A stretch of DNA of 64,000 nucleotides. Origin: Elsinoe ampelina. Taxonomy: Eukaryota. Made by a program: the position numbers and the translations under genes. The stretch is taken from contig ML992501.1 in the NCBI GenBank assembly GCA_010093995.1, positions 1,731,583-1,795,582 of the forward strand, written 5' to 3'. Below the pieces are notes generated by a model. The model was not told where the DNA came from. It was given only the letters and a program-made list of their open reading frames with translations, and searched no databases. Below, piece after piece: positions 1 to 64,000 of the stretch (positions within the stretch are counted from its first letter, which is position 1; each line of letters begins with the position of its first letter).

Positions 1-822
1 AGACCTACTAGTAAAACTCTCTAAGTATAAGTTCTATAAGTATAAGATATAATTTCTAGGCTATATTATATCTACTAATAGTATTAGACCTAATCTAAAG
101 AAGATTAAGTTAGTAAATAACTAGCTAGAACCTATAATAGTTAAGGAGGTTTAAGCGCTACTAAAGTTCTTTAACTACTACTATAAGTTTATTAAAAGAT
201 TCTCTAAGGTAGCTACGCTAATATCTAACCTTACGAAAAAGGAAACTAGCTTTATCTTTAACAAAAAATGTAGGTAGGCCTTTAAGAAGCTAAAGCTTAG
301 ACTTATAATAGTACCTATCCTAGTACTTTTCGACCTAGATTAGTAAGTACTACTAGAAACAGATGCCTTAGACTTTATAATAGAAGTGTATCTAGCGTAG
401 AAGGACGTAGAAGAATAACGCTACCTAATTATATACTACTTACAAAAAATAATTAGACCTAAACTTAACTATAATATATATAATAAGGAGTTACTTATAA
501 TTATAGAAGTATTCTATAAGTAGAGAGTATACCTAGAAGAAACAACCTTACTAGTATAAGTCTATACTAATTATAAGAACCTTCTATATTACATAACAAC
601 TAAGGTTCTTAATAGATAATAGGTTTAATAGTTAGAAATACTTACGAGCTATAACTTTTAGATCTACTATATTAAGAGATTAAAGAATAGTAGAGTAGAT
701 GCTCTTAGCTAATAACTAGATTACTTAAAGAATATAATAATAATAGAGGCCTCTATACTAAAGTAGTAAGATAGCGCTTTAGTCTATAAGTACCTAAAGG
801 TAGAGTAATTATATAGCCTTAC

Positions 823-1285
823 TATTACGAACTGTCTAAATATAGCCTACGCGAGTAGTCTAAGCTAAGCTAAGAACGAGATAGTTCTACTTCTATAGTA
901 GTATAGCACTAAGGTAAGAGTTAGAGAAGGTAGGTCTTATAGATAATAAAGTATAATTAGATAGTATTATAAAGGCTAGCCTTAGTAATACTAGTGTTTA
1001 CTATCTAGACAAGGTTAACTATAGTACTTATATAAGGTAAGGACTATTCCTATATACATGTGTTCTCTATTATATTCTCTATGTGCTCTATATACTCTAT
1101 AGCGAGAGTTAGGAGTAACATAGAGTATATGTCCGCTAGTAACCTATGCACTTTATAGTTTTAGAGGTAGAGCTACTAGAGAAGATAGAGAACTAGGTAA
1201 ATGTCGAGCTAGGTTACATAATAATTTTAGTAGTTTAATTAGTCCTAACGTCTCTATATTCTAGCTATCCTACTAGTTTATAACA
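823..1285 (-). repeat. 3' LTR of Gypsy A2
   Basis: Direct repeat of 7381-7843 differing mainly by C>T/G>A transitions. Confidence 0.95.
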
Positions 1286-1359
1286 TTACTCTCCTCCTTT
1301 AATTAAGTTATTCTAACGAGTAAGTATTCTTTCTTATCTTTACGTACTATATACTAAAT

Positions 1360-1908
1360 ATGCCTTTTAGTTGTTAAAGGCATAGTAAATCTAGTATATC
1401 TATACGAAAGAATCTCTTAGAGTTTATTAAACTATTTAGAACTAATATACTATAGGCTTATTCTTGTTATAAATTAAAGAGGCTAGACTATAAGGTCTAT
1501 ATTCGGTCGGGTATCTATAGCTAGTATATTATAAGTAACTACTTAAGTTATAATATTTAAGTAATAAAATTAGAATAGTAGTATCTCTAGTCTAAGTATA
1601 TTTATTTACAAAAGGAATTAGTTATAGCTAAGGCTACTAGAAAGAAAGCTAAAGAAGCTTATAAAAAGGCAAAAGAGACTTATTAAAGAGCTATAGGTAA
1701 TAAGCTTTATCTATATAAAGAGATATAGAAATTAAAGAATAAGGCAGAGAAAGTAATCTTTCTAGAGAAGATCTATATTTAAGTCTTAGAGTAGGAGGAA
1801 ATACTATTATTAGTAGATCCCGTCCTACTATAGAACTAGTAATTATTTATACTTAACTCTAATTAGAGTTCCTTATTTAGTAATAATTAAGGTACTTCTT
1901 TTAGCTAA
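1360..1908 (+). pseudogene. Antisense accessory gene of Gypsy A2: Zn2Cys6-like finger plus coiled coil (RIP-disrupted)
   Basis: ATG at 1360. All stops in this frame are TAA/TAG and thus RIP-revertible. Consensus with the 31223 copy gives ...CSRCKSKGLDCKVHVRSGVCGQCIASNHSSCDVQVTKSEWQRL..RLRKEL..ARKKAKEAHEKAKEAHQRA (C-x2-C-x6-C-x8-C-x2-C-x7-C; Cys inferred from TAT/TAC). End approximate. Confidence 0.7.
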
Positions 1909-4900
1909 GTAGTCTTCCTTAGATATTCTTGTTTTTGTTTAGTATTAGTAGTATTAGGCCTACCTAGTTAGTTTACTTAGGATAGGTTTTTAGTCTAGTA
2001 ATCTAGAATTACTTACGAGGTAAGGTGTTTCTCTAGTTCCTATATTACCTTACTATACTAATGTTCTTTCTAGTAGATAAGATAGTAACGTTTTTCCCTT
2101 ATAAATTTATAATATAAAACTCTTTTAATTTTATACTATAGCTCCTATATTTCTTTATCTAGTTCGATAGGTCTAGGTACTATATCCTATAGTACTTTCT
2201 CTAATAGTAATATATAAAAGACTAAGTAGATCCTTATATACCTAGGTAGTTCTAGTTTATATACGTTTTTGTTTTTCTTTTCTAGGATCTTAAAGGGTCC
2301 TAGTTTAGTGTAGTTAAGTTTCTTACTTAGTCGTTTCGTTTTAATGTTTTTACTAAGAAAGTAAACTTTCTCTCTCTCTTATAGAATTAGTCCTATAATT
2401 CTCTTCTAGTTAGTAAACTCTACTATTCTTTATAATATAAATACTATATTATAGTATAGCTAGTTATGTAGTTTCTTAATATTAGCTACTAGTATATTAG
2501 CATCCTTAGATATTAGCTTAATTCTAAGTGTATTATAGTATAGATCTAGGTATATTCTATAGTTTACGTAGAATAGTAAAATTCTATTTACTAACTTTCT
2601 ATTATTAATAGTAAGCTCTACGAGTAGTAATAGTATTACCTATAAGTCTTGCTTATAGTTTAGGTAGCATTATAGGTACTATTCTAGTACTTAATTTACT
2701 TGTTTAGTTTATTCGTCCGTCTATAGATAAAAGGAGATTAATAGCTTATATTTAACTCCTAGTAGGTCTATAAATAATTATTAGAATTATAACATAAATA
2801 GCTTATCCCTATTAGTTATTAGGTCTTATAGTACTCTATGTTATAAAATAATTATTCGAAGGAAGGTAAAGGCTATATCCTCGGTAGTTGCTATTGTCTT
2901 ATATAGTATAAAGTAGTAATACTTTATAAACCTATCTACGAGGACTAGAATACTATTATACTTTATACCTATAAGAGGTTCTTCTAATAGTAGTAGAGGT
3001 CCTATAAAGTCTATTATAACTAATTACTATAGTTTATCTAGTAGTAGCAAGAGTTATAGTAGGCTATATAGTTTATATCGAAAGTGTTTAGACTTATAGT
3101 ATATATTATATATAGCAATATATATCTTAATATTGTTTCGGAGTTCTTTCTAGAGGTAGTTTTATATAATAAGTTTAATAGTCTTATTAATTCTACTATG
3201 TTCTACCGTTAGGTTATTATAGTATATTTAAATAACTTCTTTCTTCTATTCTTATATAAGCTCCTAGGTAAAGCTATATAACTACTCTACCTTTAGGTAC
3301 TTATAGACTAGAGCGCCGTCCTACTACTTTAGTATAGAGGCCTCTATTATTATTATGTTTTTTAAGTAATCTAGCTAGCGGCTAAGAGTATCTACTCTAC
3401 TATTCTCTAATCTCTTAATATAGTAGATCTAAAAGTTATAGCTCGTAAGTATTTCTAACTATTAAACCTATTATCTATTAAGAACCTTAGTTGTTATTTA
3501 ATATAGAAGGTTCTTATAATTAGTATAGACTTATACTAGTAAGGTTGTTTCTTCTAGGTATACTCTCTACTTATAGAATACTTCTATAATTATAAGTAAC
3601 TCCTTATTATATATATTATAGTTAAGTTTAGGTCTAATCATTTTTTGTAAGTAGTATATAATTAGGCAGTGTTATTCTTCTATATTCTTCTACGCTAGAT
3701 ACACTTCTATTATAAAGTCTAAGGCATCTATTTCTAGTAGTACTTATTAGTCTAGGTCGAAGAGTACTAGAATAGGTACTATTATAAGCCTAAGCTTTAG
3801 CTCCTTAAAGGCCTATTTACATTTTTCGTTAAAGACAAAGCTAGTTTCTTTCTTTATAAGGTTAGATATTAGTATAGCTACCTTAGAAAATCCTTTAATA
3901 AACTTATAATAGTAGTTAAAGAATCCTAGTAGTACTTAAACCTCCTTAACTATAGTAGGTTCTAGCTAATTGTTTACTAATTTAATCTTCTTTAGATTAG
4001 ATCTAATACTATTAGTAGATATAATATAGCCTAGAAATTGTATCTTATATTTATAAAACTTATACTTAGAGAGCTTTACTAGTAGGTCTTTTTCTTTTAG
4101 TTTCTATAGTACTTTATAAATATGTCTTATATATTTATTATATATCTTTAAGAAGATAATAATATTATTTAAATATACTAAGATAAAGTTATTAAGGTAT
4201 TCTTATAGAGTATTATTAATTAACTCTTAGAAGGTTATAGGAGCGTTAGTTAACCTAAAGAGTATAACAAGGTACTTATATAGGCCCTATTACATTCTAA
4301 AAGCTGTTTTTTACTCCTTGCTCTTTTTTATTTATACTTAATAATAGGCGTTTCTAATATTAATTATAGTAAACTATTTAGCTCTAAGTAGTTAGTCTTA
4401 AAGTTTGTTAATCCTTAGTAAGAGATAGTAATTCTTCCTAGTAAGTATATTAAGTTTCTAGTAATTAATATATATTTATAATATCTTATTCTTTTTAGGT
4501 ATAAAAAGTACTTTATATATAATAGGTAATTTTAATAGTTATATAAATTCTTTAAGTAAGTACTTATCGATGTAGTTCTTAAAGACATTCTCTTTCTATT
4601 TTAATAGTAGTATAAGACCTTAATAGTGTATTAGGGATTTACTCTCTTTAAAAGGTATTTTGTAATTCTATAGTTTATATTAGAGTAAGGCTATAATACC
4701 TTCTCTTTCTTTAAATAAGTCCTTAAAGTCTTTATATTCTAGCGGAAGTGCTTAATTACTTATACTAGCGATAGCTCTAACTATTAGTTATATCTATACT
4801 GTTCTTATAGTTAGTATCTATAGAGCTAATTATGCTCCCTATATCCTATAATTATACTTAGGAAATTTAAGTGTTTCTTTAATCTAGTCTACGTTTAGAT

Positions 4901-7380
4901 TATATTATTAAAGCTAGTCTATGCTAAGTACTATATTATACTATATATTAACTATATTAATTAATCATTTTTCTATATATGTTTTAATTTAGATTATAAC
5001 GTTTTATAGTTCCTAAGTAACTTTTCTATTCTTTCCTATAGGAGTTCTATCTACTATAGTAAGTAAGTAAGGTAACTCCTTCTAATATTAATAAGGTTTA
5101 AGCTAGTTAGCAATTGTTATAGAGATATAGCTATAGTTAGCTCCCGAATCTATTATTACTCTTACTTTATTCTCTTATATCTAGACTTTTAGTATAAAGT
5201 AGTTTAATATATAGATCTTTATTATATTAAGACTTTAGCTAGTATTATCGTCTTACCTTATTAAGTAACAACTAGCTAGTTTTTTATTATTGTAGCTCCT
5301 TAGATAAGTAGCTAATCCCTTCCTGTATGTATTTATTGTTAGTACTATATCTATTAGGCAAGTTATGTTTTGTTACTATTTAATATAGCAAGGTAAACTT
5401 CTAGCGCCTAAGTTCCTTAGTAACTATAAAGTCTAATAATTCTCTACTAGTTATACTAAGTAGTATTATATACCTATATTAGTATAACTATTCCCTCTAG
5501 GTATAGCTAGGTATTAGTATTAAAGACAAAAGCAAGTTATATAGATTTGTCTTATCGTGTCCTATTCTAGTAGTAGGTATATATTATTATATTATTCCTC
5601 TATATCTCTATAAGGTATGCTTTAAGTTATCTACCTAGTAGTAGTACGTTGTTATTATTATTATTAGATAAGTCCTTATCTATGTTATTACATTATAGTT
5701 ATTCGAGATATTCTTTATTATATTTCTCCTTATCGCTACTATCTCTAGTATAGTTATAATTAGTAAAGCTACACTAAGTATATTCTCTTACTTAGCTATA
5801 GAGAATAGTACTATCTATTTTAATTACCGAGAAGTCTATAGTATATTTAAGACTAATAGTGTCTTCTCTAAGTATATTATATAAGTAGATAGTATAGTAC
5901 TATTTGCAATTTAGATTTATACATTTCTAGAGCGATATATAGTATACCTTTCCTTATAGTTCGCTATAAGAGCTAAAGGTAAGGCTACTATATTGTTATA
6001 TAGTACTTACATTCTAATACTTCGTCTTAATAATTATATATTAGTAATTGTTACTAACTACCTTCTAAGGTTAGTTAATGTTATTACTAATTATAGAGAG
6101 CTCTTTTAGGTTAGGTTCCTAGTCTAGCTATTTCGTTAGCTACCTATACTTAGATAGCTTATATAGAAACTAACTAGATCTCTACTTGTCTAATAAGTAA
6201 ATATAATAAGAGTTATTATAACATGCTATCTATAATAGTATTACGTATTAGCTTTGTTGTTTACTATTAGTTATAGAGATATTAAGCGTAATATTCGGAG
6301 AGAATTCTCTTATCTCTCGAGTTGTTATAGATTTCTTTTATATTTCCTTACCTACGCTAAAGGTCGTTAGGTCTTCTATAGTAGTGTTAGCCTTTTTTTC
6401 TACTAGCCTAGCAACTATTATGTATAATCTATTAGCTAGCGCCTCTTATTAGTAGTCCCTAGCCTAATACCTAGGTCTTTTATACTTAAAATATAGATTT
6501 TCTTATCTATACTTCTCTCTCTCTTTTCTACTAAGGAACTTTCCTCTATAGCTGTAGCCTTATACCTATAAGAGGTAGCCTTTATATATAGTATTAAGTT
6601 CTATAGAGTCTCTATAGTTCCGGGAGAAACGTATATACCTAGTATTTGCCTTATATCCTTTATAACGCTCTATATATCGTTTGTAAAGTCTATTATCAAT
6701 AGTAATTATAGTGTCTACTAGTTCCTAAAGGCTATTAGGTAGCTCGGGTATTATTTAGTCTTTAACTAAGTTACTTAGTCCTTAGTAAAATGCTAAATGT
6801 TTAGCACTATTATTCTAATCTAGGTATATTACGAGCTATTAGAACTAGGAATAGTACTAGGCTATAGACCTACGTTGTTATAGTTATTAAATCTTTGTTA
6901 TAGCAACACATTCCTTATTAGATACGTTAAAGACTTACTTAATCTTTGCCTAAAAGATACTAAAGCTCTTAAAGATAGCCTTTATATCTAGGCTTAGTTA
7001 TCTATCTAGGTAGCTACTTATATAAGGCTTAAACTACTTAAAGGTAGCGCCCTTAAGGTATATCCTAGTATAAAGAACCTTTACTACGTCGTTAGCGTAC
7101 TTATCCTCTTCTAGAGTAAAGAAGGCTTTAAGTTAAATAAGGAAGCGCCTTAAGTAGGCGTAGTCTCTATAAAAGGGTTCTACCTCTAGCTTAGGCTTAC
7201 TTTGTCCTTTCCCTATACTAAGAGACCTTCTATATTCGCTTAAGGTTAAACTAGTAGTAGATATGTTATTAATAGTAAGCTTCCCTAGCTTACTAGTAAT
7301 TAAAGATACTAATAGTAACTTAGAGCAAGAGTTACTTATTAACCTTATAGCGTACTATACTATAGTAAGGATAGTTAAAA

Positions 7381-7843
7381 TGTTACGAACTGTCTAAATA
7401 TAGCCTACGTAAGTAGTCTAAGCTAAGCTAAGAACGAGGTAGTTCTACTTCTATAGTAGTATAGTACTAAGGTAAGAGTTAGAGAAGGTAGGTCTTATAG
7501 ATAATAAAGTACAATTAGATAGTATTATAAAGGCTAGCCTTAGTAATACTAGTGTTTACTATCTAGATAAGGTTAACTATAGTACTTATATAAGGTAAAG
7601 ACTATTCCTATATATATATATTCTCTATTGTGTTCTCTATATGCTCTATATACTTCGTAGTAAGAGTCGGAAGTAATATAGAGTACACGTCCGCTAGTAA
7701 CCTATATACTCTATAGTTTTAGAGGTAGAGCCGCTAGAGAAGATAGAGAACTAGGTAAACGTTAGGCTAGGTTACGTAATAACCTTAGTAGTTTAATTAG
7801 TCCTAACGTCCCTACGTTCTAGCTGTCCTACTAGTTTATAACA
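7381..7843 (-). repeat. 5' LTR of Gypsy A2
   Basis: TGTTACGAAC...TATAACA followed by TSD CTTAC. Confidence 0.95.
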
Positions 7844-9146
7844 CTTACCTAGGAGCTTACGTAAGAATAGAAGTAAGAGGTTATTTAAATATACTATAAT
7901 AACCTAATAGTAGGACATAGTAGAATCGATAAGACTATTAAACTTATTATATAAAACTACCTATAGAAAGAACTCTAAAACAATGTTAAAATATATATCG
8001 TAGTATACGATATATACTATAAGTCTAAGCACTTACGACATAAGCTATATAGCCTACTACAACTGTTACTACTACTAGATAGACTATAGTAATTAGTTAT
8101 AATAGACTTTATAGAACTACTACTACTATTAGAAGAGCCTCTTATAGGTGTAACGTATAATAGTATTCTAGTTCTTATAGATAGATTTACGAAGTACTAT
8201 TACTTTGTGCTATATAAGATAATAGTAACTACTAAGGATATAGCCTTCGCCTTCCTCTAGACAATTATTTTATAATATAGAGTACTACGAGATTTAATTA
8301 CTAATAGAGATAAACTGTTTATATTATAGTTCTAGTAGTTATTCGTGGATCTATTAGGAGTTAAATATAAGCTATTAATCTTCTTTTATCTATAAATAGA
8401 TAGACAAACTAAACGAGTAAATTAAGTACTAGAGTAGTACCTACGCTACTACCTAAACTATAAGTAAGACTTATAGGTAACGCTATTACTACTTATAGAA
8501 CTTGCTATTAATAATAGAAAGTTAGTAAATAGAGTTTTACTATTCTATATAAACTATAGAATACACTCGGATTTATACTATAATATACTTAGAATTAAGC
8601 TAATATCTAAGAGTATAAATATACTAGTAGCTAATATTAAGAAGTTATATAACTAGCTATACTAAGATATAGTATTTATATTACAAAGAATAGTAAGTTT
8701 TGCTAACTAGAAGAGAATTATAGAACTAATTCTATAGGAAGGAGAGAAAGTTTACCTCCTTAGTAAAAACATTAAAACGAAACAACTAAGCAAAAAACTA
8801 AACTATACTAAGTTAGGACTCTTTACTATACTTAAAAAAAGGAATAAGAATATATATAAACTAGAACTATCTAGAAGTATAAGGATTTATCTAGTATTTT
8901 ATATCTCGTTATTAGAACCTACACTACGTAACACCTAACTAGGACTAACTAAACTAGATAATAAAACCTAATAACCCTGTTATAAAATTAATAAAATACT
9001 AAAAGATAAGCTTATTCGGGGCTACTACTATTACTTAATCTACTAGAAGGAGTATTAGTATAGTAAAGACATATAGGAACCTTAAGAATATCTTATCTAG
9101 ATATTAATCTAAAACTACTAATAAAGTCTATCTCGGAAAAAGCGGA

Positions 9147-9632
9147 CTAGTTACTAGCGTCGATAAAGAGATCCTCCGGATATACCGCTATAAAACTAGA
9201 AGCCTCTATATTATTCTCTAGCTTACTAAGAAGCTTCGCTTCCTAATTTACTATATTACTTTACTACTCTATTATCTTTTCTAGCTTCTTCTCTAGCTAA
9301 TCTACTACCTTCTAGGCCTCTAGAATCTTATAAGTAAGAGACACTAGGCGCGACTAGGCACTTTAGAATTGCCGCTATAGATCTTGCTTCTTATTCTCTA
9401 GACAACGGAATTTAGCTTCTAAGAAAGTTCCTCTATAGGATAAGTTTATCCTAGTATACTAACTATACCTTATATAACCTTATTATATAATATAAAGATA
9501 GCTCTCCTTTAAGTATTTAGAGTATCGAGCTATCTCTTTAACTTTAATTCCTATTATAGTAATCTTTTTAGCTAGGTTCTTCTAGTAAATAGTAGAGGAA
9601 AGTGTTAATAGTTTCCTAATGCCTCGAGGTAT
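9147..9632 (-). pseudogene. Antisense accessory gene of Gypsy A1: a different Zn2Cys6-like finger plus coiled coil (RIP-disrupted)
   Basis: De-RIP reading MPRGIRK..SST..RKNLAKKI..G....ARCSKCLKESHLC....GY.RCGQCTR.NLSCGGTFSEAEFR.LENKKQDLQRQ...LEKKLEK (C-x2-C-x6-C-x8-C-x2-C-x6-C). Only TAA/TAG stops; start is ATA (inferred ATG). End approximate. Confidence 0.65.
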
Positions 9633-9731
9633 TATTAGCTATTATAAGAAAAAGAGAACGAAGGGAATTAAGTAAGTACCTATCTAGTTTTAAACACGTT
9701 AAGGACGACTATACTATAGAAGGGGAGGTAA

Positions 9732-10152
9732 TATTACAAACCGGTAGAAAGAAAGGTAACTTTATTCGCTTACGACGCTCTAATAGAGTTCTAGCGTAGA
9801 GAAGAAAGTTACGTAACTAGAAGCGTATAGGCCGAGGACCTAAACGCTCTACTATACTCTATAACGCTCTTATATAGAGTACTCCTAGATTATTATAGAT
9901 CCCCTAGGGAATCTTAAGTATATAGTAAGTAGTCCTTACCCTATATAAGTACTATAGTTAACCTTGTCTAGATAGCGAACACTAGTATTACTAAGGCTAG
10001 CCTTTATAATACTATCTAATTGTACTTTATTATCTATAAGATATACCTTCTCTAACTCTTCCTTAGTACTATACTACTATAGAAGTAGAACTACCTTATT
10101 CTTAGCTTAGCTTAGACTACTAGTATAGGCTATGTTTAGACAGTTCGTAATA
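9732..10152 (+). repeat. 3' LTR of Gypsy A1 (R-U5 shared with A2, U3 unrelated)
   Basis: ~9925-10152 is the reverse complement of 823-~1055, while 9732-~9920 does not match. Preceded by PPT. Confidence 0.9.
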
Positions 10153-11227
10153 GGTAGTTACTAGATGTCTATATATTAAAGCTAAAGTACACTATTAAAA
10201 CTACTATTTAGAGGTACTTAGTAATAACACTAGTAGCACTTAAATAAGCTAAATAAATCTACTAGCTAATAGAGGTATAGGATAGTATAGTCCTATCTAG
10301 ATAAGGGCTAAGATACTAAAGCAAGTAGTAGAGGTAGAGGCTTTTAATCTTACTAAAGGAAATATTATTATAAACTATCTAATAAAGAAGTAAGCCTCTA
10401 AAAGTTTAAGCTTAAAACTAAGTAGTAATTATATTAATAACTATAGGAGTTATACCTTAAGAAAGGCTAAAGCTTACTACAATTAATAGTCTAGTAGCTA
10501 GTATAACCTTATAGCTTAGATTAAAGATCTTATACTACTTCTTAAAGTAGTTAATTAGACTATTAGTTTACTAAGGAGTAGGTATTATATACCTTATAAC
10601 TTGCTTCTTTTTTAAGTAGTATAACTTATATAGCTAATACTTAACTCTATAGAAGTCTTTAATACGCTAGCTATATATCTATATAAAGCTAATCTTTATT
10701 ATAGAGAATTTAGTAGTATAATAGCCTTTAAGGGAGTATATAGTCTAGTCTACCTTAGCGTATAGATTATTAGGTTTATAATAACTTAGCCTTACCTTAG
10801 AGAGGCCTTATAGTCTAGCTAATAGTCTAATTTTATTATTATAATAGATATTAGCTATTTCTTAAAGGAATAATAGCTCACTTAAAGCTTTAGAGGCTAT
10901 AGTTAAATTTTAGTAAATTTTTAGAGTAGTGTTTATTCTAATAAATAATTATAAATTATATACTAAAGTACTAAGAGAAGGAGATAAGGTTTAGTAAGTA
11001 TCTCTATACTAATTAGAGCTCGATTTTGCTATAACTCTATACCCTTAGCTATCTACCTTATTATACCCTTAATTAGCACTACCACTTTTATAATTATTAT
11101 TAACAATATCTAGCTTTATAGATTAATTAATTAATGCCAAGGAAAAAATCTGATCATAAGATATTAATTGATTAATCAATTAATAAGTGGCAATACAATC
11201 AATCATGATTGATTGTAGTCTTCACTG
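10153..11227 (-). mobile_element. hAT-superfamily DNA transposon, 5' end and N-terminal transposase relic
   Basis: Terminus CAGTG (minus strand from 11227) with subterminal CAATCAAT/ATTGATT repeats at 11120-11215. De-RIP BED finger WLCKLC...TNGLIDHFKKQHKI at ~10525-10640, NISFSKIES..L..LLQYL at ~10310-10370, catalytic VHFSFDxWTSSN at ~10157-10192. Confidence 0.8.
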
Positions 11228-12839: not shown

Positions 12840-13559
12840 ATGCCTTCATATCTCATCACAGGCGCAAACCGTGGCCTGGGCCTAGAATTCGTCCGCCAGC
12901 TATCCCAGGATGCTGACAACACGATTCTGGCATGCACGCGATCTTCTTCCGCCGATCTTTCCGACGTCAAAAAGGTAGCTTCCAAATCGACTCATTTCCT
13001 CGTCTGCGACACGGGAGATATCAAATCAATCAAATCCCTCGCGACTTCGGCCCGTGACGCTCTTGCAGGCAGCAAGCTCGATTTCGTCATCAACAACGCC
13101 GGCATCAATGCCAAACCCGAGCAAACCGCATTGTCGATCTCGCCTGAGGATCTCAACGAGCATATCCGGGTGAACGTGGTAGGACCGGCGAAGACGACGG
13201 AATATCTCTTGGAAGCTGGCTTGTTGGCTGAGAATGCTCGAATCGTCAACATGACATCTGGCTTGGGAAGCATGGTTGTGTCTCTGTCGATCACCCCGAG
13301 GAAGTGTGCTACCTACTCAATCTCCAAGGCAGCTCTCAATGCCCTCACGGTGCAGCAGAGTGGCGAGGTCAGGGAGAAGCTGCACGGTGCAGTTGTCATT
13401 TGTATGGATCCAGGTTGGGTGAAGACTCGGATGGGTGGTGATGGAGCGCAGCTCGAGCCAGAGGTCAGCATCGGTGGCATGCTGAAGTGCATACATGGGT
13501 TGAGCGACGGGAGCAATGGCAAGTTCTTCACGTACACGGGTGAAGAGGTACCGTGGTAG
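12840..13559 (+). CDS. Classical short-chain dehydrogenase/reductase (C-factor/sniffer-like), 239 aa, single exon
   Basis: MPSYLITGANRGLG (TGxxxGxG), NNAG, catalytic YSISK, DPGWVKTRMGG, C-terminal GKFFTYTGEEVPW. The ATG at 12840 fits the family better than the ORF-track start at 12669. Confidence 0.93.
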   Translation: MPSYLITGANRGLGLEFVRQLSQDADNTILACTRSSSADLSDVKKVASKSTHFLVCDTGDIKSIKSLATSARDALAGSKLDFVINNAGINAKPEQTALSISPEDLNEHIRVNVVGPAKTTEYLLEAGLLAENARIVNMTSGLGSMVVSLSITPRKCATYSISKAALNALTVQQSGEVREKLHGAVVICMDPGWVKTRMGGDGAQLEPEVSIGGMLKCIHGLSDGSNGKFFTYTGEEVPW

Positions 13560-30683: not shown

Positions 30684-33600
30684 TGTTACGAACTGTCTAA
30701 ACATAGCCTACGTTAGTAGTCTAAGCTAAGCTAAGAACGAGGTAGTTCTACTTCTATAGTAGTATAGTACTAAGGTAAGAGTCGGAGAAGGTATATCTTA
30801 TAGATAATAAAGTACAATTAGATAGTATTACAAAGGCTAGCCTTAGTAATACTAGTGTTCGCTATCTAGACGAGGTTAACTATAGTACTTATATAAGGTA
30901 AGGACTTATTCCTATATACATGTGTTCTTTACTATATACTTTATATACTCTACGTACTCCGTAGTAGAGCCGCTAGAGAAGATAGAGTATACGCTCGCTA
31001 GTAACCTACGTGCTCTATAGTCTCCGGGGTAGAGCCGCTAGAGAAGATAAAGAACTAAGTAAATATCGGGCTAAGTTATATAATAACCTTAGTAGTTTAA
31101 TTAGTCCTAACGTTTCTACGCTCTAGCTTATCCTACTAGTTCGTAACACTACTCTCCTCCTTTAATCGAGTTATTCTAACGAGTAAGTATTCTTCTCTAT
31201 CTTTACGCGCTATATACTAAATATATCTCCTAGTCGTTAAAGACATAGTAAATCTAGCATATCTATACGAAAGAATCTCTTAGAGTTTATTAAACTATTT
31301 AGAACTAATATACTATAGGCTTATTCTCGTTACAAATCGAAGGGGCTAGACTATAAGGTCTATATTCGGTCGGGTATCTATAGCTAGTATATTACAAGTA
31401 ACTACTCTAGTTATAATATTTAGGTAACAAAATCGGAATAGTAGCGTCTCTAGTCTAAGTATATTCGTTTACGAAAGGAATTAGTTATAGCTAAGGCTAC
31501 TAGAAAGAAAGCTAAAGAAGCTTATAAAAAGGCAAAAGAGGCTTATTAAAGAGCTATAGGTAATAAGCTTCGCCTACGCGAAGAGATATAAAAGTTAGAG
31601 GATAAGGCGAAGAAAGTAATCTCTTTAAAGGAGACTTGTATTTAAGTCTTAGAGTAGGAGAAAATACTATCGTTAGTGAATCCTGTCCTACTATAGGACT
31701 AGTAATTATTTATGCCTAACTCCGACTAGAGTTCCTTATTCGGCAACGATTAGGGTACTTCTATTAGCTAAGTAGTCTTCCTTAGGCGTTCTCGTTTTTA
31801 TTTAGTATTAGTAGCGTTAGGTCCGCCTAGTTAGTTTACTTAGAATAGGTTTTTAGTTTAGTAATCTAGGATTACTTACGAGGTAAGATGTTTCTCTAGT
31901 TCCTATATTGCCTTACTATACTAATGTTCTTTCTAGTAGATAAGATAGTAGCGTTTTCCTTTTATAAGTTTATAACGTAATACTCTTTCTATCTTATACT
32001 ATAGCTCCTATGTTTCTTTATCTAGTTCGATAGGTCTAGGTATAGTATTCTATAGTACTTTCTCTAGTAGTAATATATAAAAGACTAGATAGATCCTTAT
32101 ATGTCTCGGTAGTTCTAGTTTATATACGTTCTTGTTTTTCTTTTCTAAGATCCTAAAGGGTCCTAGTTTAGTATAGTTAAGTTTCTTACTCGGTTGTTTC
32201 GTTTTAATATTTTTGCTAAGGAGGTAAACTTTCTCTCTCTCCTTTAGAATTAGTCCCGTAATTCTCTTCTAGTTAGTAAATTCTGCTATCCTTTATAATA
32301 TAAATGCTATATTATAGTATAGCTAGTTATATAGTTTCTTAATGTTAGTAACTAGTATATTAGCGTCCTTAGATACTAGCTTAATTCTAAGTGTGTTATA
32401 GTATAGATCCGAGTATATTCTATAGTTTATATAGAATAGTAAAACTTTATTCGCGGACTTTCTATTATTAATAGCAAGCTCCGTAAGTAGTAATAGTATC
32501 GCCTATAAGTCTTACTTATAGTTTAGGTAGCATCGTAGGTACTACTCTAGTACTTAATTTGCCTATTTAGTTTATCTGTCCGTTTATAGATAAAAGGAGG
32601 TTAATAGCTTATATTTAACTCCTAGTAGATCCACAAATAATTACTAGAATTATAACGTAAATAGCTTATCTCTATTAGTTATTAGGTCTCGTAGTACTCT
32701 ATATTATAAAACAATTATTCGAAGGAAGGTAAAGGCTATATCCTTAATAGTTACTATTGTCTTATATAGTATAAAGTAGTAATACTTCGTAAACCTATCT
32801 ACTAGGACTAGAATACTATTGTACTTTACACCTATAAGAGGTTCTTCTAATAGTAGTAGAGGTCCTATAAAGTCTATCGTAACTAATTACTATAGCTTGT
32901 CTAGTAGTAGCAAGGGTTATAGTAAGCTATATAGCTTATGTCGTAAGTGCTTAGACTTATAGCATATATCGTATACAGCGATATATATCTTAACATCGTT
33001 TCGGAGTCCTTTCTATAGGTAGTTTTATGTAATAAGTTTAATAGTCTTATTAATTCTACTATATCCCGTAGTTAGGTTATTATAGTATATTTAAATAACT
33101 TCTTTTTTCTATTCTTACGTAAGCTCCTAGGTAAGGCTATATAATTGCTCTACCTTTAGGTACTTATAGACTAAAGCGCTATCTTACTACTTTAGTATAG
33201 AGGCCTCTATTATTATTATATTCTTTAAGTAGTCCGGTTGTCGGCTAAGAGCGTTCGCTCCGCTATTCTCTAATTCCTTAACATAGTAGATCTAAAAGTT
33301 ATAGCTTATAAGTGTTTCTAACTATCGAACCTGTCGTCTATTAAGAACCTTAGTTATTATCTAATATAATAGGTTCTTATAGTTAGTATAGACTTACATA
33401 GGTAAGGTTATTTCTTCTAGATATATATGCTATTCGCGGAATACTTCTATAATTGTAAGTAATTCCTTATTGTGTATATCGTAGTTAAGTTTAGGCCCGG
33501 TCATTTTTCGTAAGTAGTATACGATTAGGTAGCGTCGTCCCTATACGTCTTTCTACGCTAGACACGCTTCTATTATAGAGTCTAAGGCATTTGTTTCTAG

Positions 33601-36600
33601 TAGTGCTTATTAGTCTAGGTTAAAGAGTACTAGGATAGGTGCTATTATAAGTCTAAGCTTTAGCTTCTTAAAGGTCTACCTACATCTTTTGTTAAAGACA
33701 AAGCTAGTTTCCTTTTTCGTAAGGTTAGATATTAGCGTAGCTATCTTAGAGAATTCTTTAACAAACTTATAGTAGTAGTTAAAGAACTCTAGTAGCGCTT
33801 AAACCTCCTTAACTATCGTAGGTTCCGGCTAGTTATTTACTAACTTAATCTTCTTCGGATCGGGTCTAATACTATTAGTAGATATAACATAGCCTAGAAA
33901 TTATATCTTGTACTTATAGAACTTACACTTAAAGAGTTTTACTAGTAAGTCTTTCTCTTTTAGTTTCTATAGCACTTTATAAATATATCTTATATGTTTA
34001 TCGTATATCTTTAAGAAAATAACAATATTATCTAAATATACTAAGATAAAGTTATTAAGGTATTCTTGTAGAGTATTATTAATTAACTCTTAGAAGGTTA
34101 TAGGAGTGTTAGTTAACCTAAAGGGTATAACGAGGTATTTATATAGACTCTATTATGTCCTAAAAGCCGTTTTCTACTCCTTGCTCTCCTTTATTTGTAC
34201 TTAATAATAGGTATCTCTAATGTTAATTATAGTAAACTATTTAGCTCTAAGTAGTTAGTCTTAGAGTTTGTCGATTCTAGGTAAGGGATAGCAATTCTTC
34301 CGGGTAAGTGTATTAAGTTTCTAGTAATTAATACATATTTATAACGTCTTATCCTTCTTAAGTGCGAAAAGCACTCCGTACATAATAGGTAATTTTAATA
34401 GTCGTATAAATCCTTTAAGTAAGTACTTATCGATATAGTCCTTAAGGACGTTCTCTTCTTATTTCGATAGTAGTATTAGACCTTAATAGTGTATCGGGGA
34501 TTTACCTTCTTTAAAAGGTATTTCGTAATTCTATAGTTTATATTAGAGTAAGGCTATAATACCTTCTCTTTCTATAAATAAGTCCTTAAAGTCTTTATAT
34601 TCCGGCGGAAGTACTTAATTACTTACGCTAGCGATAGCTCTAACTATTAGTTATACCTATACTATTCTTATAGTTAGTATCTACGGAGCTAATTATGCTC
34701 CCTATATTCTATAATTATACTTAGAGAATTTAAGTGTTTCTTTAATCTAGTCTACGTCTAGATTATGTTATTAAAGCTAGTCTATACTAAGTACTATATT
34801 ATACTATATGTTAACTATATTAATTAATTGTTTTTCTATATATATCTTAATTTTAATTATAACATTTTATAGTTCCTAAGTAACTTTCTTATTCTTCTCT
34901 ATAGAGGTTCTATTCGCTATAGTAAGTAGGTAAGGTAACTCCTTCTAATATTAATAAGGTTTAAGCTATTTAGCAACTATTATAGAGACGTAGCTATAGT
35001 TAGCTCCTAAATCTATTATTGCTCTTACCTTATTTCCTTATATCTAGGCTTCTAGTATAAAGTAATTTAATATATAGATCTTTATTATATTAAGGCTTTA
35101 GCTAGTGTTATTATCTTACCTTATTAGGCAATAACTAGCTAGTTTTTTGTTATTGTAGCTCCTTAGATAAGTAGCTAATCCCTTCCTACGCGTATCTACT
35201 ATTAGTACTATATCTATTAGGCAAGTCGTGTTTTATCGTTGTTTAATATAGCGAGGTAAACTTCCGGTACTTACGTTCCTTAATAACTATAAAGTCTAAT
35301 AATTCTCTACTAGTTATACCGAGTAGTGTTATATACCTATACTAGTATAACTATCCCCTCTAGGTATAGCTAGGTATTAGCGTTAAAGACAAACGCGAGT
35401 TAAGTAGATTTGTCTTATCGTATTCTATTCTAGTAGTAGGTGTATATTATTATATAGTTTCTCTATATTTCTATAAGGTATGCCTTAAGTCGTCTACCCG
35501 GTAGTAGTACGTCGTTGTCTTTGTCGTTAGATAAGTCTTTATCTATATTATTACATTATAGTTATTTAGTATATTCTTCGTTGTATTTCTCTTCGTCGCT
35601 ACTGCCCCTAGTATAGTTATAGTTAGTAAGGCTACACTAAGTATATTCCTATACTTAGCTATAGGGAATAGTACTACCTATTTTAATTACTAAGAAGTCC
35701 GTAGTGTATTTAAGACTAATAGCCTCTTCTCTAAGTATATTATATAAGTAAATAGTATAGTACTATTCGTAATTTAGATTTGTGCATTTCTAGAGCGATA
35801 TATAATATACCTTTCCTTATAGTTCGCTATAAAGGCTAAAGGTAAAGCTACTATGTTATTATATAGTACTTACGTCCTAATACTTCGTCTCGATAATTGT
35901 ATATTAGTAATTGTCGCTAACTACCTTCTAAGGTTAGTTAATGTTACTACTAATTATAGAGAGCTCTTCTAGGTTAGGTTCCTAGTCTAGCTATTTTGTT
36001 AGTTACCTACGCTTAGATAGCTTATATAGAAACTAACTAGATCCCTGCTTGTCTAATAAGTAAATATAACAAGAGTTATTATAACATGCTATCTATAATA
36101 GCGTTACGTATTAGCTTTATTATTCGCTATTAGTCGTAGAGATATTAAGCATAACATCCGGAGAGGATTCTATTACCTCTTAAGTCGTCGTAGACTTCTT
36201 CTATATTTCCTTACCTATGCTAAAGATCGTTAGGTCTTCTATAGTAGTATTAGCCTTTTTCTCTACTAGCCCGGCAACTATTATATATAATCTATCGGCT
36301 AGCGCCTCTTATTAGTAGTCCCTAGCCCGATGCCTAGGTCTTTTACACTTAAAACATAGATTATCTCGTCTATACTTCTCTCTCTCTTTTCTACTAAGGA
36401 ACTTTCCTCTACAACTTCGGCCTTGTATCTATAAGGGGCAACCTTTACGTATAGCGTTAAGTTCTATAGGGTCTCTATAGTTTCGAGAGAAACGTATATA
36501 TCTAGTGTTTACCTTATATCTTCTATAACGTTCTATACGTCGTTCGTAAAGTTAGTTATTAATAGTAATTGCGGTATCTACTAGTTCTTAGAGGCTATTA

Positions 36601-37708
36601 GGCAGCTCGAGTATTATTTAGTCCTTAACTAAGTCGCTTAGTCCTTAGTAGAATACTAAATGTTTAGTACTATTATTCTAGTCTAGGTGTATTATAAGTT
36701 ATTAGAACTAGAAGTAGTACTAGGCTATAGACCTACGTTGTTATAGTTGTCAAATCTTCGTTATAGTAACATATTTCTTATTAGATACGTTAAAGACTTA
36801 CTTAATCTTTGTCTAGAAGATGCTAAAGCTCTTAAAGATAGCCTTTATATCTAGGCCTAGTTATCTATCTAGGTAGCTACTTATATAAGGCTCAAACTAC
36901 CTAAAGGTAGCGCCTTTAAGGTGTATCCTAGTATAGAGGACCTTTACTACGTCGTTAGTGTACTTGTCTCTCTCTAGAGTAAAGAAGGCTTTAAGTTAAA
37001 CAAGGAAGCGCCTTAAGTAGACATAGTCCCCGTAGAAGAGTTCTACTTCTAACTTAGGCTTGCTCTATCTCTCCCCTATACTAAGAGACCTTCTATGTTC
37101 GCCCGAGGTTAAACTAGTAGTAGATATATTGTTAATAGTAAGCTTTCCTAGCTTACTAGTAATCGAAGATACTAATAGTAACTTAGAGCAAGAGTTACTT
37201 ATTAACCTTATAGCGTGCTATACTATAGCAAGGGTAGTTAAAATGTTACGAACCGTCTAAATATAGCCTACGTTAGTAGTATAAGCTAAGCTAAGAACGA
37301 GGTAGTTCTACTTCTATAGTAGTATAGTACTAAGGTAAGAGTTAGAGAAGGTATATTTTACAGATAATAAAGTACAATTAGATAGTATTATAAAGGCTAG
37401 CCTTAGCAATACTAGTGTTCGCTATCTAGACGAGGTTAACTATAGTACTTATATAAGGTAAGGACTTATTCCTATATATATGTATTCTTTACTACGTACT
37501 CTATATGCTCTACGTACTCTATAGTAGAGCTACTAGAGAAGATAGAGTACACGCCCGCTAGTAACCTATACGCTCTATAGTCTCCGGGGTAGAGCTACTA
37601 GAGAAGATAGAGAACCGAGTAAACGTTAGGCTAGGTCGCGTAATAACCTTAGTAGTTTAATTAGTCCTAACGTCTCTACGCTCTAGCTTGTTCTACTAGT
37701 TCGTAACA
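30684..37708 (-). mobile_element. Full-length Ty3/Gypsy, second copy of subfamily A2 (element D), less mutated
   Basis: 465-bp LTRs at 30684-31148 and 37244-37708. TSD CTAAG. Colinear with 823-7843. Confidence 0.96.
31223..31771 (+). pseudogene. Antisense Zn2Cys6-like/coiled-coil accessory gene, second A2 copy
   Basis: Same length and frame as 1360-1908; retains more ancestral codons (CGT TAC AAA TCG AAG GGG; CTT CGC CTA CGC GAA GAG). Confidence 0.7.
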
Positions 37709-38315
37709 CTAAGCTTAGTTTAGTAGCTTAACTAATTTATCTTAGGTCTTTATATTAGACTTATAAGCTATTAAATACTTAGTAAATTATAATAAGGAGT
37801 TCTAATACTAAACTTACTATATTAAAGCTATTTAAGAGAACTACCTTTAATATTATTATTAATAGATTTACTAGCTATAATAAGGTAAGATATATAAGCT
37901 ACTTTACTTATAGAACTACTAACTATTAACTAGTTACTACCTATACTTATAGATATAAGATTAATAAAATCTATATTAAAATAATTACTTATATTAAAAG
38001 CAATCTTAGCTTTAAAATTAGATTCCTTAGGAGTAATAATAAGAAAGCTTTTAGCTTTAAATTTACTATCTTCTTAAATAGTAAAGAAATCTATTATAAG
38101 CTATCTACTCTCTATACTTAAGCTTAGAATAGTTATAATAAAAGAATAGAAGCTATACTATTAAGAAGAGTAAGGGTAATTACTATCTTTACTAATCTAC
38201 TAAGAGAATTATACTCTAAACTATATAGATTAGTAGCCTATTTAATTAATAGAACACCTCTTAAGAAGCTAAACTAGAAGACTCTCTTTAAGCTAGTTTA
38301 TAGATATTCTCTATT

Positions 38316-60827: not shown

Positions 60828-63800
60828 CTATACCGATAACCTGATTCCACTTGCTGCTGCTCCTATAGCGCAGACCTCGCATACCTTGCAAACCGTTCCT
60901 TTGTACTTGGGCAAGTATTTCGTGCCGTCGTATGGACAGCTGACACTCTGCTCACCGGCATAAATCGGCGTGTAACTTGCACCGCAGACCTCAAACTCCG
61001 CAAAGGGATCGAACTCGACTTCGATGGCATCTCCTGGGCTCCGTTCGCAAGCAGCCTTGACCTTCTTCGCCGTATCCTTGAACTTGGCATTAGTGCCCTT
61101 TTCGATCAGAGCATTAGCGAATCCAAGCGCAGATGACAATTGCTTGTTCTTGTTCGCGAGATTCATAGCGGCATAGAGGGCGAGGGTGACGTGGTTGGGG
61201 TCGAGACTGGGTACCGTGAAATAGGCGGAGAGCTCGAGTACACGCTTGCGCTTGTCCTCGGGAAGTGATGAAAGGTCGGTAGCTGGAGAGATCGCTCGGC
61301 GAGCAAGTTCGATAGACATGGCGAGTGTGTAGGATGCGGCCGTCTGGATAAGAGCCTTTGCCTGCGGTTGTTGTCAGTATCAGCTGATCATTTATCGGCT
61401 CCAATAATGCACTCACCTCTTCTACTTCAGATTTTGTGGTCACGGCGTTGACAAGCATGGTGTGGAGAATCTTCTTGAATAACACGACACCCTCTTCGAG
61501 CTGGTTCTTCTGCATTCGCTGTTTGGCGGCAGGCAAGTCGACAGTGGTGATTGATTCCAGGTCGCGGACGATCAGTGGTAGAAGTTTTCGTGATTCAGTC
61601 TCCTTCAATGTGCGTCGAACATAGTTGACAAGAGGCGGTAATCCAGGGCTTGCGGGCAGGTATGTACGTGTCGCTTGGTGAATCTCGTTGAATCTGCTTT
61701 CGAGTGGCTTGAAATTGACCGCGCCTACTTGCCTGTTGAGCAGATTCATTGCTGTATCAAAGGAGCCACCAGCGACATGATCGGCTGCGACGGGGGAGTT
61801 CCGAATCCAGATCTCAGCTTCACTTATGCCAGCGCCTGCATCGTCTGCTTCAACGTTGACATAATCGTCGTCTGCAGAAATGGCAGTCTCCTCCCCAACG
61901 TCCCAGCCGGCAAGATCTTCGTCTTCAGCTTCGTCAATGTGCCCGTTGGCGTCTGGCTCGGCGTCTGCATCTGCAAAGTCGTCTTCCGCGTACCCGTTTG
62001 CCACGGCCTCTTCGTCGCCACCTTCTGCGAGTAAAGCCTTCTCAAATGATGAGACACCTGTAGACTTGACGGGCCAATTCTTCTCGAAGGTTGGAGCAAA
62101 AACCGATGGTGTCGTGAAAGGCTTTCCTGTACTCGGCAGCGAGATTTGATCTTCAGACAATCCCGTGGCGTCGAGAATCGCGTGACATTCGTCGTCCAAA
62201 CCGTGTGTCTTTGCTGTCAGGTAAGCCAATGGATCTGTGTTGCATTAGTATCAGCGTCGTGAGCTCATAACCACTATACTCACATTGATCGAGTTCCTTG
62301 AGCATGTCAATTCTGCTTTGAACATCATTCAAGTATATCGAGTTCTGGAATCGTGAAGTCATGTCGCCTCTGTGCTCTGCGATCTTCGCCATTCGTTGAA
62401 GCTTGTTTTCGTCACCAGTCGCCAGATACAGGAAGGAGAGTTTGTCGAAGTTCTTCAGCTTCTGGTAAGTCATTTCCACAACTTGGTGATTGCCGTGTGC
62501 CAAAGCTTCCGAGCTGAGTTGCTGCCAGATCTTTGGTCGATCAAGCTGCTTGGCCATCTCGACAGCGACATCCAGATTGCCGCACTCGATCGCCAGCTCA
62601 AATCTAGTTTGCGGGTCCTGCACGAATTGTAGAGCAATCTCAGGGTAGCCCTTTTTTTGCAGATATGAAATGATGCTCTGGCCAACAAGACTGGAGTTCT
62701 TGATAATGTTCAGCATTTCGTCGTAGTGTCGCTTGACCAAGGCAAGCTTGAATCGATATTCCGTTGGCTCGATCGTCATGATCTTCGGCTTCGCTGCCCG
62801 GTCGAGTGCGTAGATGCTGCGACCCTTGACACGGACAAGGTAGACCGTCTGGTCGAGAGTTCGCACAATGCCGTTGTCGCCATTCATGAGCGTGTACTTG
62901 ATGTGATTAAGGGTAGAATAGAGCAGAACGCCAGCGTCATCCCAGACTGCGCTCTTGATCCGAATAGTCTCGTGCAGTGTAGAGACCTGTTCGAGCTGTT
63001 TTGTGACGATCGTAACGTTGTGCTTGCTCAGTAAGGCACAGTGGAGACCATCGCTAGACCAGGTCACGTATTTGACACCAGCTACAGCAAGTTCTGCAAG
63101 CTGCTTCTTTTGTTGAATATCGTACAAGTAGACCGTGGTTGGCGTGACGAGCAAAAGACAACCGGTGCCTCCGAAAAAGACGTCTGTGGTACCGTGCGGT
63201 GGCTTGATGGTCTTGGTCGTCGAATTCGAGAGATCCTTGATGTCCACTTGCTGGTTTGCTGAGTTGAAAACGGCGAAGCGGTTCCTGGCAACGAAGACGG
63301 CGGACTGTCCAGATCCCCGCATAGTGTTCGTGGGCTCAACTGCACCAGAAGCGTCCTTTGGCAAGCTGACGAGCTCGTACACGCCACCATCAACAGGCGA
63401 TGTGACAAGAACAGCGCGTTCAGCTGGGTTGTATGACATGGACCGTGGTGGTACCCATGCGCTTCCTAGCTTCTTCAAGGAGAGCATCGACGGACTCTCA
63501 ACATTCTTCGTAAAGTCGAACGATCGAACATGCTTCTCCTTGGTGATATAGAAAAGCTGGTTCTGGTAGACCGCAGATGCTGGGCGTTCTCTCTCCAGTT
63601 TAAACACCATTACACCATTGTCGTGACCAGCTGCAAACAGATTGATCTCTGGATGCGCCGCAATCACCCAGAACCTATCGTTCTCGCGCTTGAAGGACTG
63701 TACCGATGTCCGCTTGTTCAGATCCCAGACACGCACGGTCTTGTCCTCACCGACCGACAGAATGAGATCCTGGTGTGGATGGAACAAGCACGCCGATGCA

Positions 63801-64000
63801 TTCTGGAAATGGCCTCGACAGGTATCGACCTCCCAAGCTTTTGTTTCGCTCATCCTCCAGAGCTTGATGAGCCTGTCATCTCCTGCCGAAACAATGAGGG
63901 GCAGAGTCGGGTGGAATGCGACCCAATTCACACCGCGATCATGACCTTCGAGCACGAACTTGACGACCGCGTCAGTGTTACCGAACATGTCCGCCTGATT
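60828..64000 (-). CDS. COP1: Coatomer subunit alpha (alpha-COP), 5'-partial
   Basis: WD40 region VKFVLEGHDRGVNWVAFHPTLPLIVSAGDDR, coatomer WDAD region (GYPEIALQFV), C-terminal domain (CGASYTPIY...CKVCEVCAIG). Introns at ~62235-62283 and ~61362-61416. Confidence 0.97.

Follow-up and report, generated by a model that had tools for sequence, protein, structure and literature searches.

Alternative antisense-gene and U3 modules on a shared Gypsy backbone in Elsinoe ampelina

Accessory genes lying antisense to a retrotransposon have been described before, such as brtn of Boty/BcGypsy1 in Botrytis cinerea (Zhao et al. 2011, as cited in PMC7264820, bioRxiv 10.1101/2021.04.13.439636), and the accessible sections of two papers call the function of antisense accessory open reading frames (ORFs) in long terminal repeat (LTR) retrotransposons unknown (PMC7264820, PMC11963269). 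Exchange between elements is also described: intermolecular strong-stop transfer joins the R and U5 of one parent to the U3 of the other, followed by a second template switch (PMC6894440, accessible sections). Here we analyze a 64,000-nucleotide stretch of Elsinoe ampelina DNA (assembly GCA_010093995.1, contig ML992501.1, positions 1,731,583 to 1,795,582; hereafter the window, with positions counted from its first letter) that carries two Gypsy subfamilies, A1 and A2. We find that A1 and A2 share a backbone and diverge over a block comprising the integrase tail, an antisense ORF and U3, and that across the genome this one backbone carries at least four such cassettes, each with a different antisense ORF and its own U3.

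Block-like divergence between A1 and A2

Repeats in this genome (28.3 Mb) are AT-rich with a TA/AT ratio near 2, the signature of repeat-induced point mutation (RIP), and gene islands are unaffected. Because RIP adds transitions only, we scored transversions as a RIP-proof measure of divergence, both as a profile (per 200 nt, against 10 A2 copies) and as fixed differences, defined as sites separating both A1 copies from the A2 copies (52 A2 copies for 7849-9100). The profile was taken from A1b, a second and uninterrupted A1 copy (L095) with the target site duplication (TSD) ATTAA.

Both measures confirmed that the divergence is block-like. A1b differed from A2 by 0-1.1% transversions across A2 positions 401-4600 (U5, gag, protease, reverse transcriptase (RT) and RNase H), and A2 copies differed from one another by 0-1.1% in the same region; A1b gag and RT fall inside the A2-A2 range. 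The figure was 0.8-5% in integrase, 14-33% at A2 positions 5601-6800, which span the integrase tail (~131 transversions per kb), the antisense ORF and U3, and 1.3-1.4% in R-U5, bearing out the divergence over chromodomain tail, antisense gene and U3 that an earlier note on this sequence had described. Fixed differences were absent from A2 positions 226-4734 (~4.5 kb), numbered five at window 8002-8299, were absent at 8300-8799, became dense at 8800-9929 and were absent beyond. The earlier note had pol shared to the end of integrase, with divergence from 8950; the sharing is real, but the left edge lies ~150 nt earlier, at ~8800 in the SH3-like integrase tail, and the left flank of the block is made of small mosaic tracts rather than a single clean edge. 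On the right, the LTR is common to both subfamilies from the TATA-like site through U5, as had been proposed, with no fixed differences after 9929. The patch at 8002-8299 is common to both A1 copies, matches a related lineage (B, described below) only partly, and is possibly a remnant of a missing A1 donor.

The apparent edge at the TATA box is the start of clan-wide conservation, the segment from TATA to R being nearly invariant across A1, A2, lineage B and a third cassette type (type 3), with A1 and type 3 carrying the A2 distal U5. The stretch between TATA and R of type 3 retains a base typical of B while the distal U5 is A2-type, so the type 3 crossover lies in R.

A2 is a 7.0-kb element with two full copies in the window (30684-37711 and 825-7848, both on the minus strand by self-comparison); the latter is 88% identical over 7029 nt to 30686-37710 and sits inside A1, whose remains occupy 1-822 and 7849-10152. 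A1 is a complete nested element split by insertions, with its 5' LTR 55 kb upstream at G000:C1:~1676076 and the same TSD, GGTAG, flanking its 5' and 3' LTRs. Both subfamilies have the order LTRs with TSD, gag, then protease, RT, RNase H and integrase, colinear in tblastn with the polyproteins of two intact metagenomic elements (L115 and L116, described below). Pfam assigned PF24626, plus a weak PF17921, in the A1 integrase region, and we take the C-terminal domain of A1 and A2 to be a chromodomain from its motif rather than from a profile match. The features are as follows.

1-822, plus: A1 pol (RT/RNase H part), A2-type backbone; the remainder of A1, with the 5' LTR, is upstream of the window
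825-7848, minus: second full A2 copy, within A1 pol (self-comparison)
7849-8799, plus: A1 integrase core, essentially A2-type, with a foreign patch at 8002-8299 (five to six diagnostic transversions)
8800-9110, plus: left part of the swapped block, SH3-like integrase tail and chromodomain region (PF24626; ~13% transversions from A2)
9093-9632, minus: A1 antisense accessory ORF, RIP-broken, P0001 family; six-cysteine finger at ~9435-9524, then coiled coil and acidic tail
9718-9731, plus: polypurine tract of A1
9732-9918, plus: A1-type U3 (4 genome copies found), with GCTCT[A/G] repeats and an inverted AGAG[C/T] motif
9919-10152, plus: TATA box (9919-9925), A1-specific spacer to 9929, clan-wide R, A2-type U5
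10153-10157, no strand: TSD GGTAG, matching the 5' LTR flank in L096
30684-37711, minus: full-length A2 copy of the dominant subfamily
30920-31151, minus: A2-type U3 of the 3' LTR
31223-31770, plus: A2 antisense accessory ORF, RIP-broken, with an approximate end; Cys or Tyr codons at six positions in 55/55 copies
31860-32179, minus: A2-type integrase tail and chromodomain, counterpart of 8800-9110

By self-comparison, at least five further nested LTR elements surround A2 at 16149-58512, with paired repeats at 16484/23580, 24678/29711, 38316/44371 and 44793/52496, and this nest interrupts an inverted repeat of ~2.8 kb. Host genes in the window comprise a short-chain dehydrogenase (12840-13559) and coatomer alpha subunit exons (60828-63988).

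Four cassettes on a mosaic backbone

Genome searches yielded two A1 elements (4 LTRs) and 217 candidates for the A2 module, the best 40 of which were scored. Cassette 3 (L188/L227), with L188 emerging as an outlier of the integrase-tail search, combines A2-like pol and U5 with a U3 of another type; its ORF belongs to the P0062 family, which is distantly homologous to the A1 family (hhalign 99.7%). Lineage B (L225 at G000:C10:1322766-1329636, and L226) holds a related cassette with its own distal U5 and a gag differing by up to ~17% transversions. Cassette 4, located on C7 and reached via an unclassified LTR, has an A2-type backbone to the chromodomain end, a new U3 joined at the R start, and two LTRs sharing a TSD; its U3 recurs on a C4 element with a third gag type (up to 20% transversions). 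Lineage B and this C4 element are possible donor sister lineages. In both A1 elements, the cassette-3 element and the cassette-4 element, both LTRs carry the same hybrid U3/R-U5, with the second crossover internal. The fourth antisense frame (L235, G000:C7:~1093000-1093700) is cysteine-rich with a different cysteine spacing, matches neither intact ORF family, and had no intact relative in our searches.

The earlier note had supposed that antisense gene and U3 travel together, and a genome survey for strict linkage supports this. Among 64 distinct 3' ends, 59 paired the A2 ORF with the A2 U3, 3 were type 3 for both and 2 were A1 for both; adding the C7 element gives 65 ends over four cassette types, of which 0 are mixed and 6 are non-A2. 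A count from another anchor returned 75 loci (69 A2/A2, 2 A1/A1 and 4 unclassified), the unclassified ones being L188, a locus cut at an edge, and two copies (L085 and L170) interrupted at A2 positions 5617-5672 and so without a classifiable cassette.

The backbone is itself a mosaic. The window A1 carries a minority gag tract that recurs in 3 of the 44 other copies, including one with an A2 U3, whereas the gag of A1b is the common form and its integrase contains a tract that agrees with lineage B at 9 of 10 sites. Since the two A1 copies differ in both gag type and integrase tract, the backbone recombines repeatedly. At least three gag types, up to 15-20% transversions apart, occur in the clan on a largely shared pol (L225, L226, and L233/L234 on G000:C4 from 920572), and from the sequence gag looks like a second exchangeable module.

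The arrangement recurs in intact metagenomic elements. Only two loci among 125 candidates emerged from a metagenome scan, L115 and L116, so any test of U3/ORF co-variation rests on three intact U3s. Each is an intact chromodomain Gypsy element whose antisense ORF, of the A1 family, occupies the same position; the L116 pol is ~43% identical to that of L115 and 31-38% identical to the damaged A1/A2 copies. L116 also contains another 3' end. Its integrase portion matches the first at 92.8% identity and its LTR, counted from the TATA box onward, at 98.7%; its ORF (P0062), in contrast, is only 26% identical and its U3 is different, and the block has the same edges as between A1 and A2. The two intact ORF families of L116 are the same two as cassettes 1 and 3 of the E. 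ampelina genome. We compared L116 with contigs and unitigs from 4 runs of 4 studies, three of which (X2, X5 and X6) showed one long gag-pol piece with two alternative ORF+U3 paths, the fourth (X9) being fragmented; in X5 the two paths, at depths of 35 and 38, add up to roughly the depth of pol, 67. Among the pieces listed in the four runs, none showed a mixed joint between the L116 alleles. No piece spans the tandem layout of L116, so we do not take that layout as real; it is probably an assembly walk through the repeat graph. None of the RNA data sets listed carried L116.

Antisense proteins and U3 regions

The antisense ORFs sit between pol and the 3' LTR, ~100 nt from U3, and the cassette types share little homology across this distance, apart from an 82-nt patch at 73% identity between ORF and polypurine tract. 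The A1 product has the spacing Cx2Cx6Cx8Cx2Cx6C and the A2 product Cx2Cx6Cx8Cx2Cx7C, the latter mostly read as Tyr after RIP, and a coiled coil is predicted in both. BLAST found no similarity between the two ORFs, and profile similarity is weak (hhalign 29.7% for the A1 family against A2, 2% between the two damaged profiles), in keeping with the earlier note's description of two proteins alike only in architecture. In all 55 of 55 A2 copies the six matching codons read TGY or TAY, and at four of these positions a Cys codon survives in some copies; the A1 start codon is intact in the second A1 copy.

Intact relatives exist for A1. With stops read as X, the two A1 copies retrieved 31 proteins (E up to 0.001, best E 4e-20) among 1.84 billion representatives, and the full-length relatives have the pattern Cx2Cx6Cx8Cx2Cx6-7C, a long helix and an acidic tail, with the cysteines invariant or near-invariant. 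This spacing fits what we take to be the Zn2Cys6 pattern, Cx2Cx6Cx5-12Cx2Cx6-8C, and UniRef names one intact relative 'Zn(2)-C6 fungal-type domain'. The P0001 model (pLDDT 84) contains a 69-residue helix, and all of its top 11 Foldseek rows are Zn2Cys6-DNA complexes (E 0.4-1.7); the nearest Atlas clusters are ascomycete hypothetical proteins, in rows below the naming threshold. A wide fold search gave coiled coils only, a sequence search of the PDB gave coiled coils and other weak rows only, and Pfam gave no meaningful match to the damaged A1 and A2 ORFs. No intact relative of the A2 protein appeared among 2853 candidates of a word-indexed homolog search with the A2 profile, a search limited by RIP damage, and two scans of viral_contigs found no relatives. 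Judging from the model and the conserved spacing, the antisense protein most likely binds DNA as a dimer and regulates the element.

A branch-site-like GCTRAC with a pyrimidine tract lies immediately 5' of the ORF start codon, with a GTAAGT donor upstream in some elements; such intron-like signals occur at window 9600-9731 (minus), L115:123-250, and L116:306-440 and 6826-6945. These signals suggest that the antisense leader may contain an intron, whose splicing might shift the start to a conserved Met before the first Cys.

The U3 regions contain motif arrays, whose motif counts we set against mononucleotide shuffles; these do not correct for the TA excess of RIP, so U3 motif enrichments are overstated. 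A CACGTGA-like box, a candidate host basic helix-loop-helix site, stands 80-110 nt before the TATA box in the U3s of A1, type 3, lineage B and L116 elements 1 and 2. In L116 element 2 it is overlapped by a perfect 8-bp inverted repeat, GTGACTTC-N8-GAAGTCAC.

Exchange, regulation and comparison with known elements

Taken as a whole, the data are probably best explained by A1 and A2 being members of one clan of chromodomain Ty3/Gypsy elements that recombines during reverse transcription in a RIP-active ascomycete. The clan shares pol and TATA-R but has several gag types and several old, non-alignable 3' modules (integrase tail, antisense Zn2Cys6-like ORF, polypurine tract and U3). Where two different RNAs are packaged in one particle, we infer, minus strong-stop DNA copied from the R-U5 of the primed RNA would jump to the identical R of the other RNA, where RT would copy U3, the polypurine tract and the antisense ORF before switching back at the first integrase homology, moving ORF and U3 as a block in one replication round. 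Because RT can return only where homology resumes, the left edge would fall in the integrase tail. The module probably also works as a cis unit, given that ~100 nt separate the LTR from the start of the antisense ORF and that the LTR likely drives transcription of this ORF. Template-switch recombination, as first suggested in the earlier note, is thus supported by the block-like exchange and by its edges in R and the integrase tail.

Conservation of R-U5 may have a further source. The primer-binding site complements the R start, 39-41 nt after the TATA box, over 8 nt in L115, 9 nt in L116 and 7 nt in A1 and A2 (marking a likely R start in A1 at 9955). This hints at possible self-priming like that described for Tf1 (PMC2864245, accessible sections), which would tie R-U5 to the 5' end and would help explain its conservation.

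Several points weigh against recombination during reverse transcription as the full account. Genome searches found no donor backbone for the A1 cassette, so the direction of the A1 exchange is drawn by analogy, and the genome survey is a sample, the best 40 of up to 237 candidates per search having been scored. Similar mosaics could also arise through ectopic DNA recombination or gene conversion, and the two L116 alleles could sit in different strains. On the protein side, Foldseek E-values of 0.4-1.7 are weak matches, and in 14 of 14 intact relatives Pfam gave no family at cut-off, including Zn_clus (PF00172).

As to what the module does, one explanation is that the protein serves the whole clan as an activator, repressor or anti-silencing factor whose target is a shared motif or host chromatin, with U3 diversifying separately for host signals and the ORF hitchhiking. 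We regard this as possible, at somewhat less than an even chance. It would account for the motif array and CACGTGA-like box being common to several U3 classes. There is also a precedent in Tnt1, which is a plant element of the Copia type. In Tnt1, modular evolution of U3 alone is documented (PMC1838419, accessible sections). Harder to reconcile with a clan-wide factor are the four very different ORFs kept in one clan and the family-specific finger sequences conserved by intact relatives, which suggest different specificities.

The alternative is a lock and key, in which each antisense protein would bind or regulate only its own U3, mixed elements would be selected against, and the pair would diversify as a private transactivator/enhancer module; this we consider doubtful. 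It is favored by the absence of mixed ends over four cassettes even though the 82-nt patch could allow uncoupling, and by the absence of a mixed joint in the pieces compared with L116. Despite a pol identity of 43%, L115 and L116 element 1 also have the ORF family in common, and in both a GCTCTG/CAGAGC array precedes the TATA box (score 64, against at most 35 in 500 shuffles), while L116 element 2, with the other ORF family, has GCTTTG/AAAGC at the same place, and three U3s with P0062-type ORFs score z at most 1.9 against A1, A2 and L115. This co-variation of ORF and U3, seen among three intact U3s, is weak. Moreover, the A1 and A2 U3s both carry the main array in RIP-compatible forms though their proteins differ (against a weak null), the A2 U3 is nearer that of L115 (z 5.6-7.7) than the A1 U3 is (z 2.1-3.2), yet L115 has an A1-type protein, and U3s with P0062-type ORFs are unlike when the backbones differ (z -0.2 to 0.8), whereas the two U3s of L116 align with each other (z 5.5-6.2) although their proteins are different. 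With only 6 of 65 ends non-A2, the linkage count has little power, and since adjacency and strand-transfer geometry themselves predict linkage, linkage alone does not show a lock and key.

Gradual divergence of A1 and A2 without any swap, with pol and R-U5 alike only by constraint or RIP, which the earlier note had set against its own proposal, can draw on the intermediate zone in the left flank and on the conservation of TATA-R even in lineage B, which makes the right edge partly a conservation boundary, but we rule it out as extremely improbable from the fixed-difference map (zero fixed transversions over 4.5 kb including silent sites and gag, beside 14-33% in the block), the A1b range and the comparison with lineage B, whose gag differs where that of A1b does not.

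Matched pairs occur naturally here, with alternative ORF+U3 modules on a single backbone and, in L116, two such modules intact, making cognate recognition directly testable. A broader and tentative idea, which we think unlikely to hold, is that fungal chromoviruses carry private transactivator/enhancer pairs, an element-encoded Zn2Cys6-like protein with its cognate U3, as ancient alleles exchanged as a unit between backbones; the P0001-type and P0062-type allele families both segregate on two unrelated pol backbones, and if the idea is true, subfamilies with one replication machinery would keep separate regulatory circuits. Tax and Tat act on LTR elements, and if recognition is cognate, a retrotransposon would here encode its own sequence-specific regulator, like complex retroviruses. 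Even without cognate specificity, the data show a fungal Gypsy clan in which whole gag and 3' modules are exchanged around a pol held in common, a mode of evolution masked by family-level annotation.

Among known proteins, the Zn2Cys6 factors Gal4, Ppr1, Put3, Hap1 and Pho7, which gave the best structural rows, have in common with the antisense proteins the six-cysteine spacing, the coiled coil after it and the acidic tail; unlike them, the antisense proteins are only 170-200 amino acids long, match no Pfam Zn_clus and have few basic residues between cysteines 2 and 3. LTR swapping has reportedly been seen in soybean (Du et al. 2010). The gene brtn of Boty resembles the ORFs described here in position, being an extra antisense gene that a fungal Gypsy element carries between pol and the 3' LTR; the accessible sources describe neither a zinc-cluster assignment nor alternative cassettes for it. 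The plant antisense ORFs of Retand, Grande and RIRE2 (PMC7264820, PMC11963269) share position and strand and have a proposed, untested regulatory role, but contain different domains (TRP28 and others), and the accessible text describes no U3-linked exchange for them. A term search found neither 'antisense' nor 'zinc' in the main text of a survey of fungal LTR elements (PMC3248453), and a search of the accessible literature listed no paper in which fungal Gypsy elements exchange modules of an antisense zinc-cluster ORF with U3. Tnt1 subfamilies (PMC1838419) resemble the present clan in combining conserved pol with a modular, divergent U3, and the accessible text describes no encoded factor for them. 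Finally, recombination by reverse transcription (PMC6894440, as far as accessible) involves the same strong-stop transfer as proposed here, to which the block described here adds a protein-coding accessory gene and four very old alleles on one pol.
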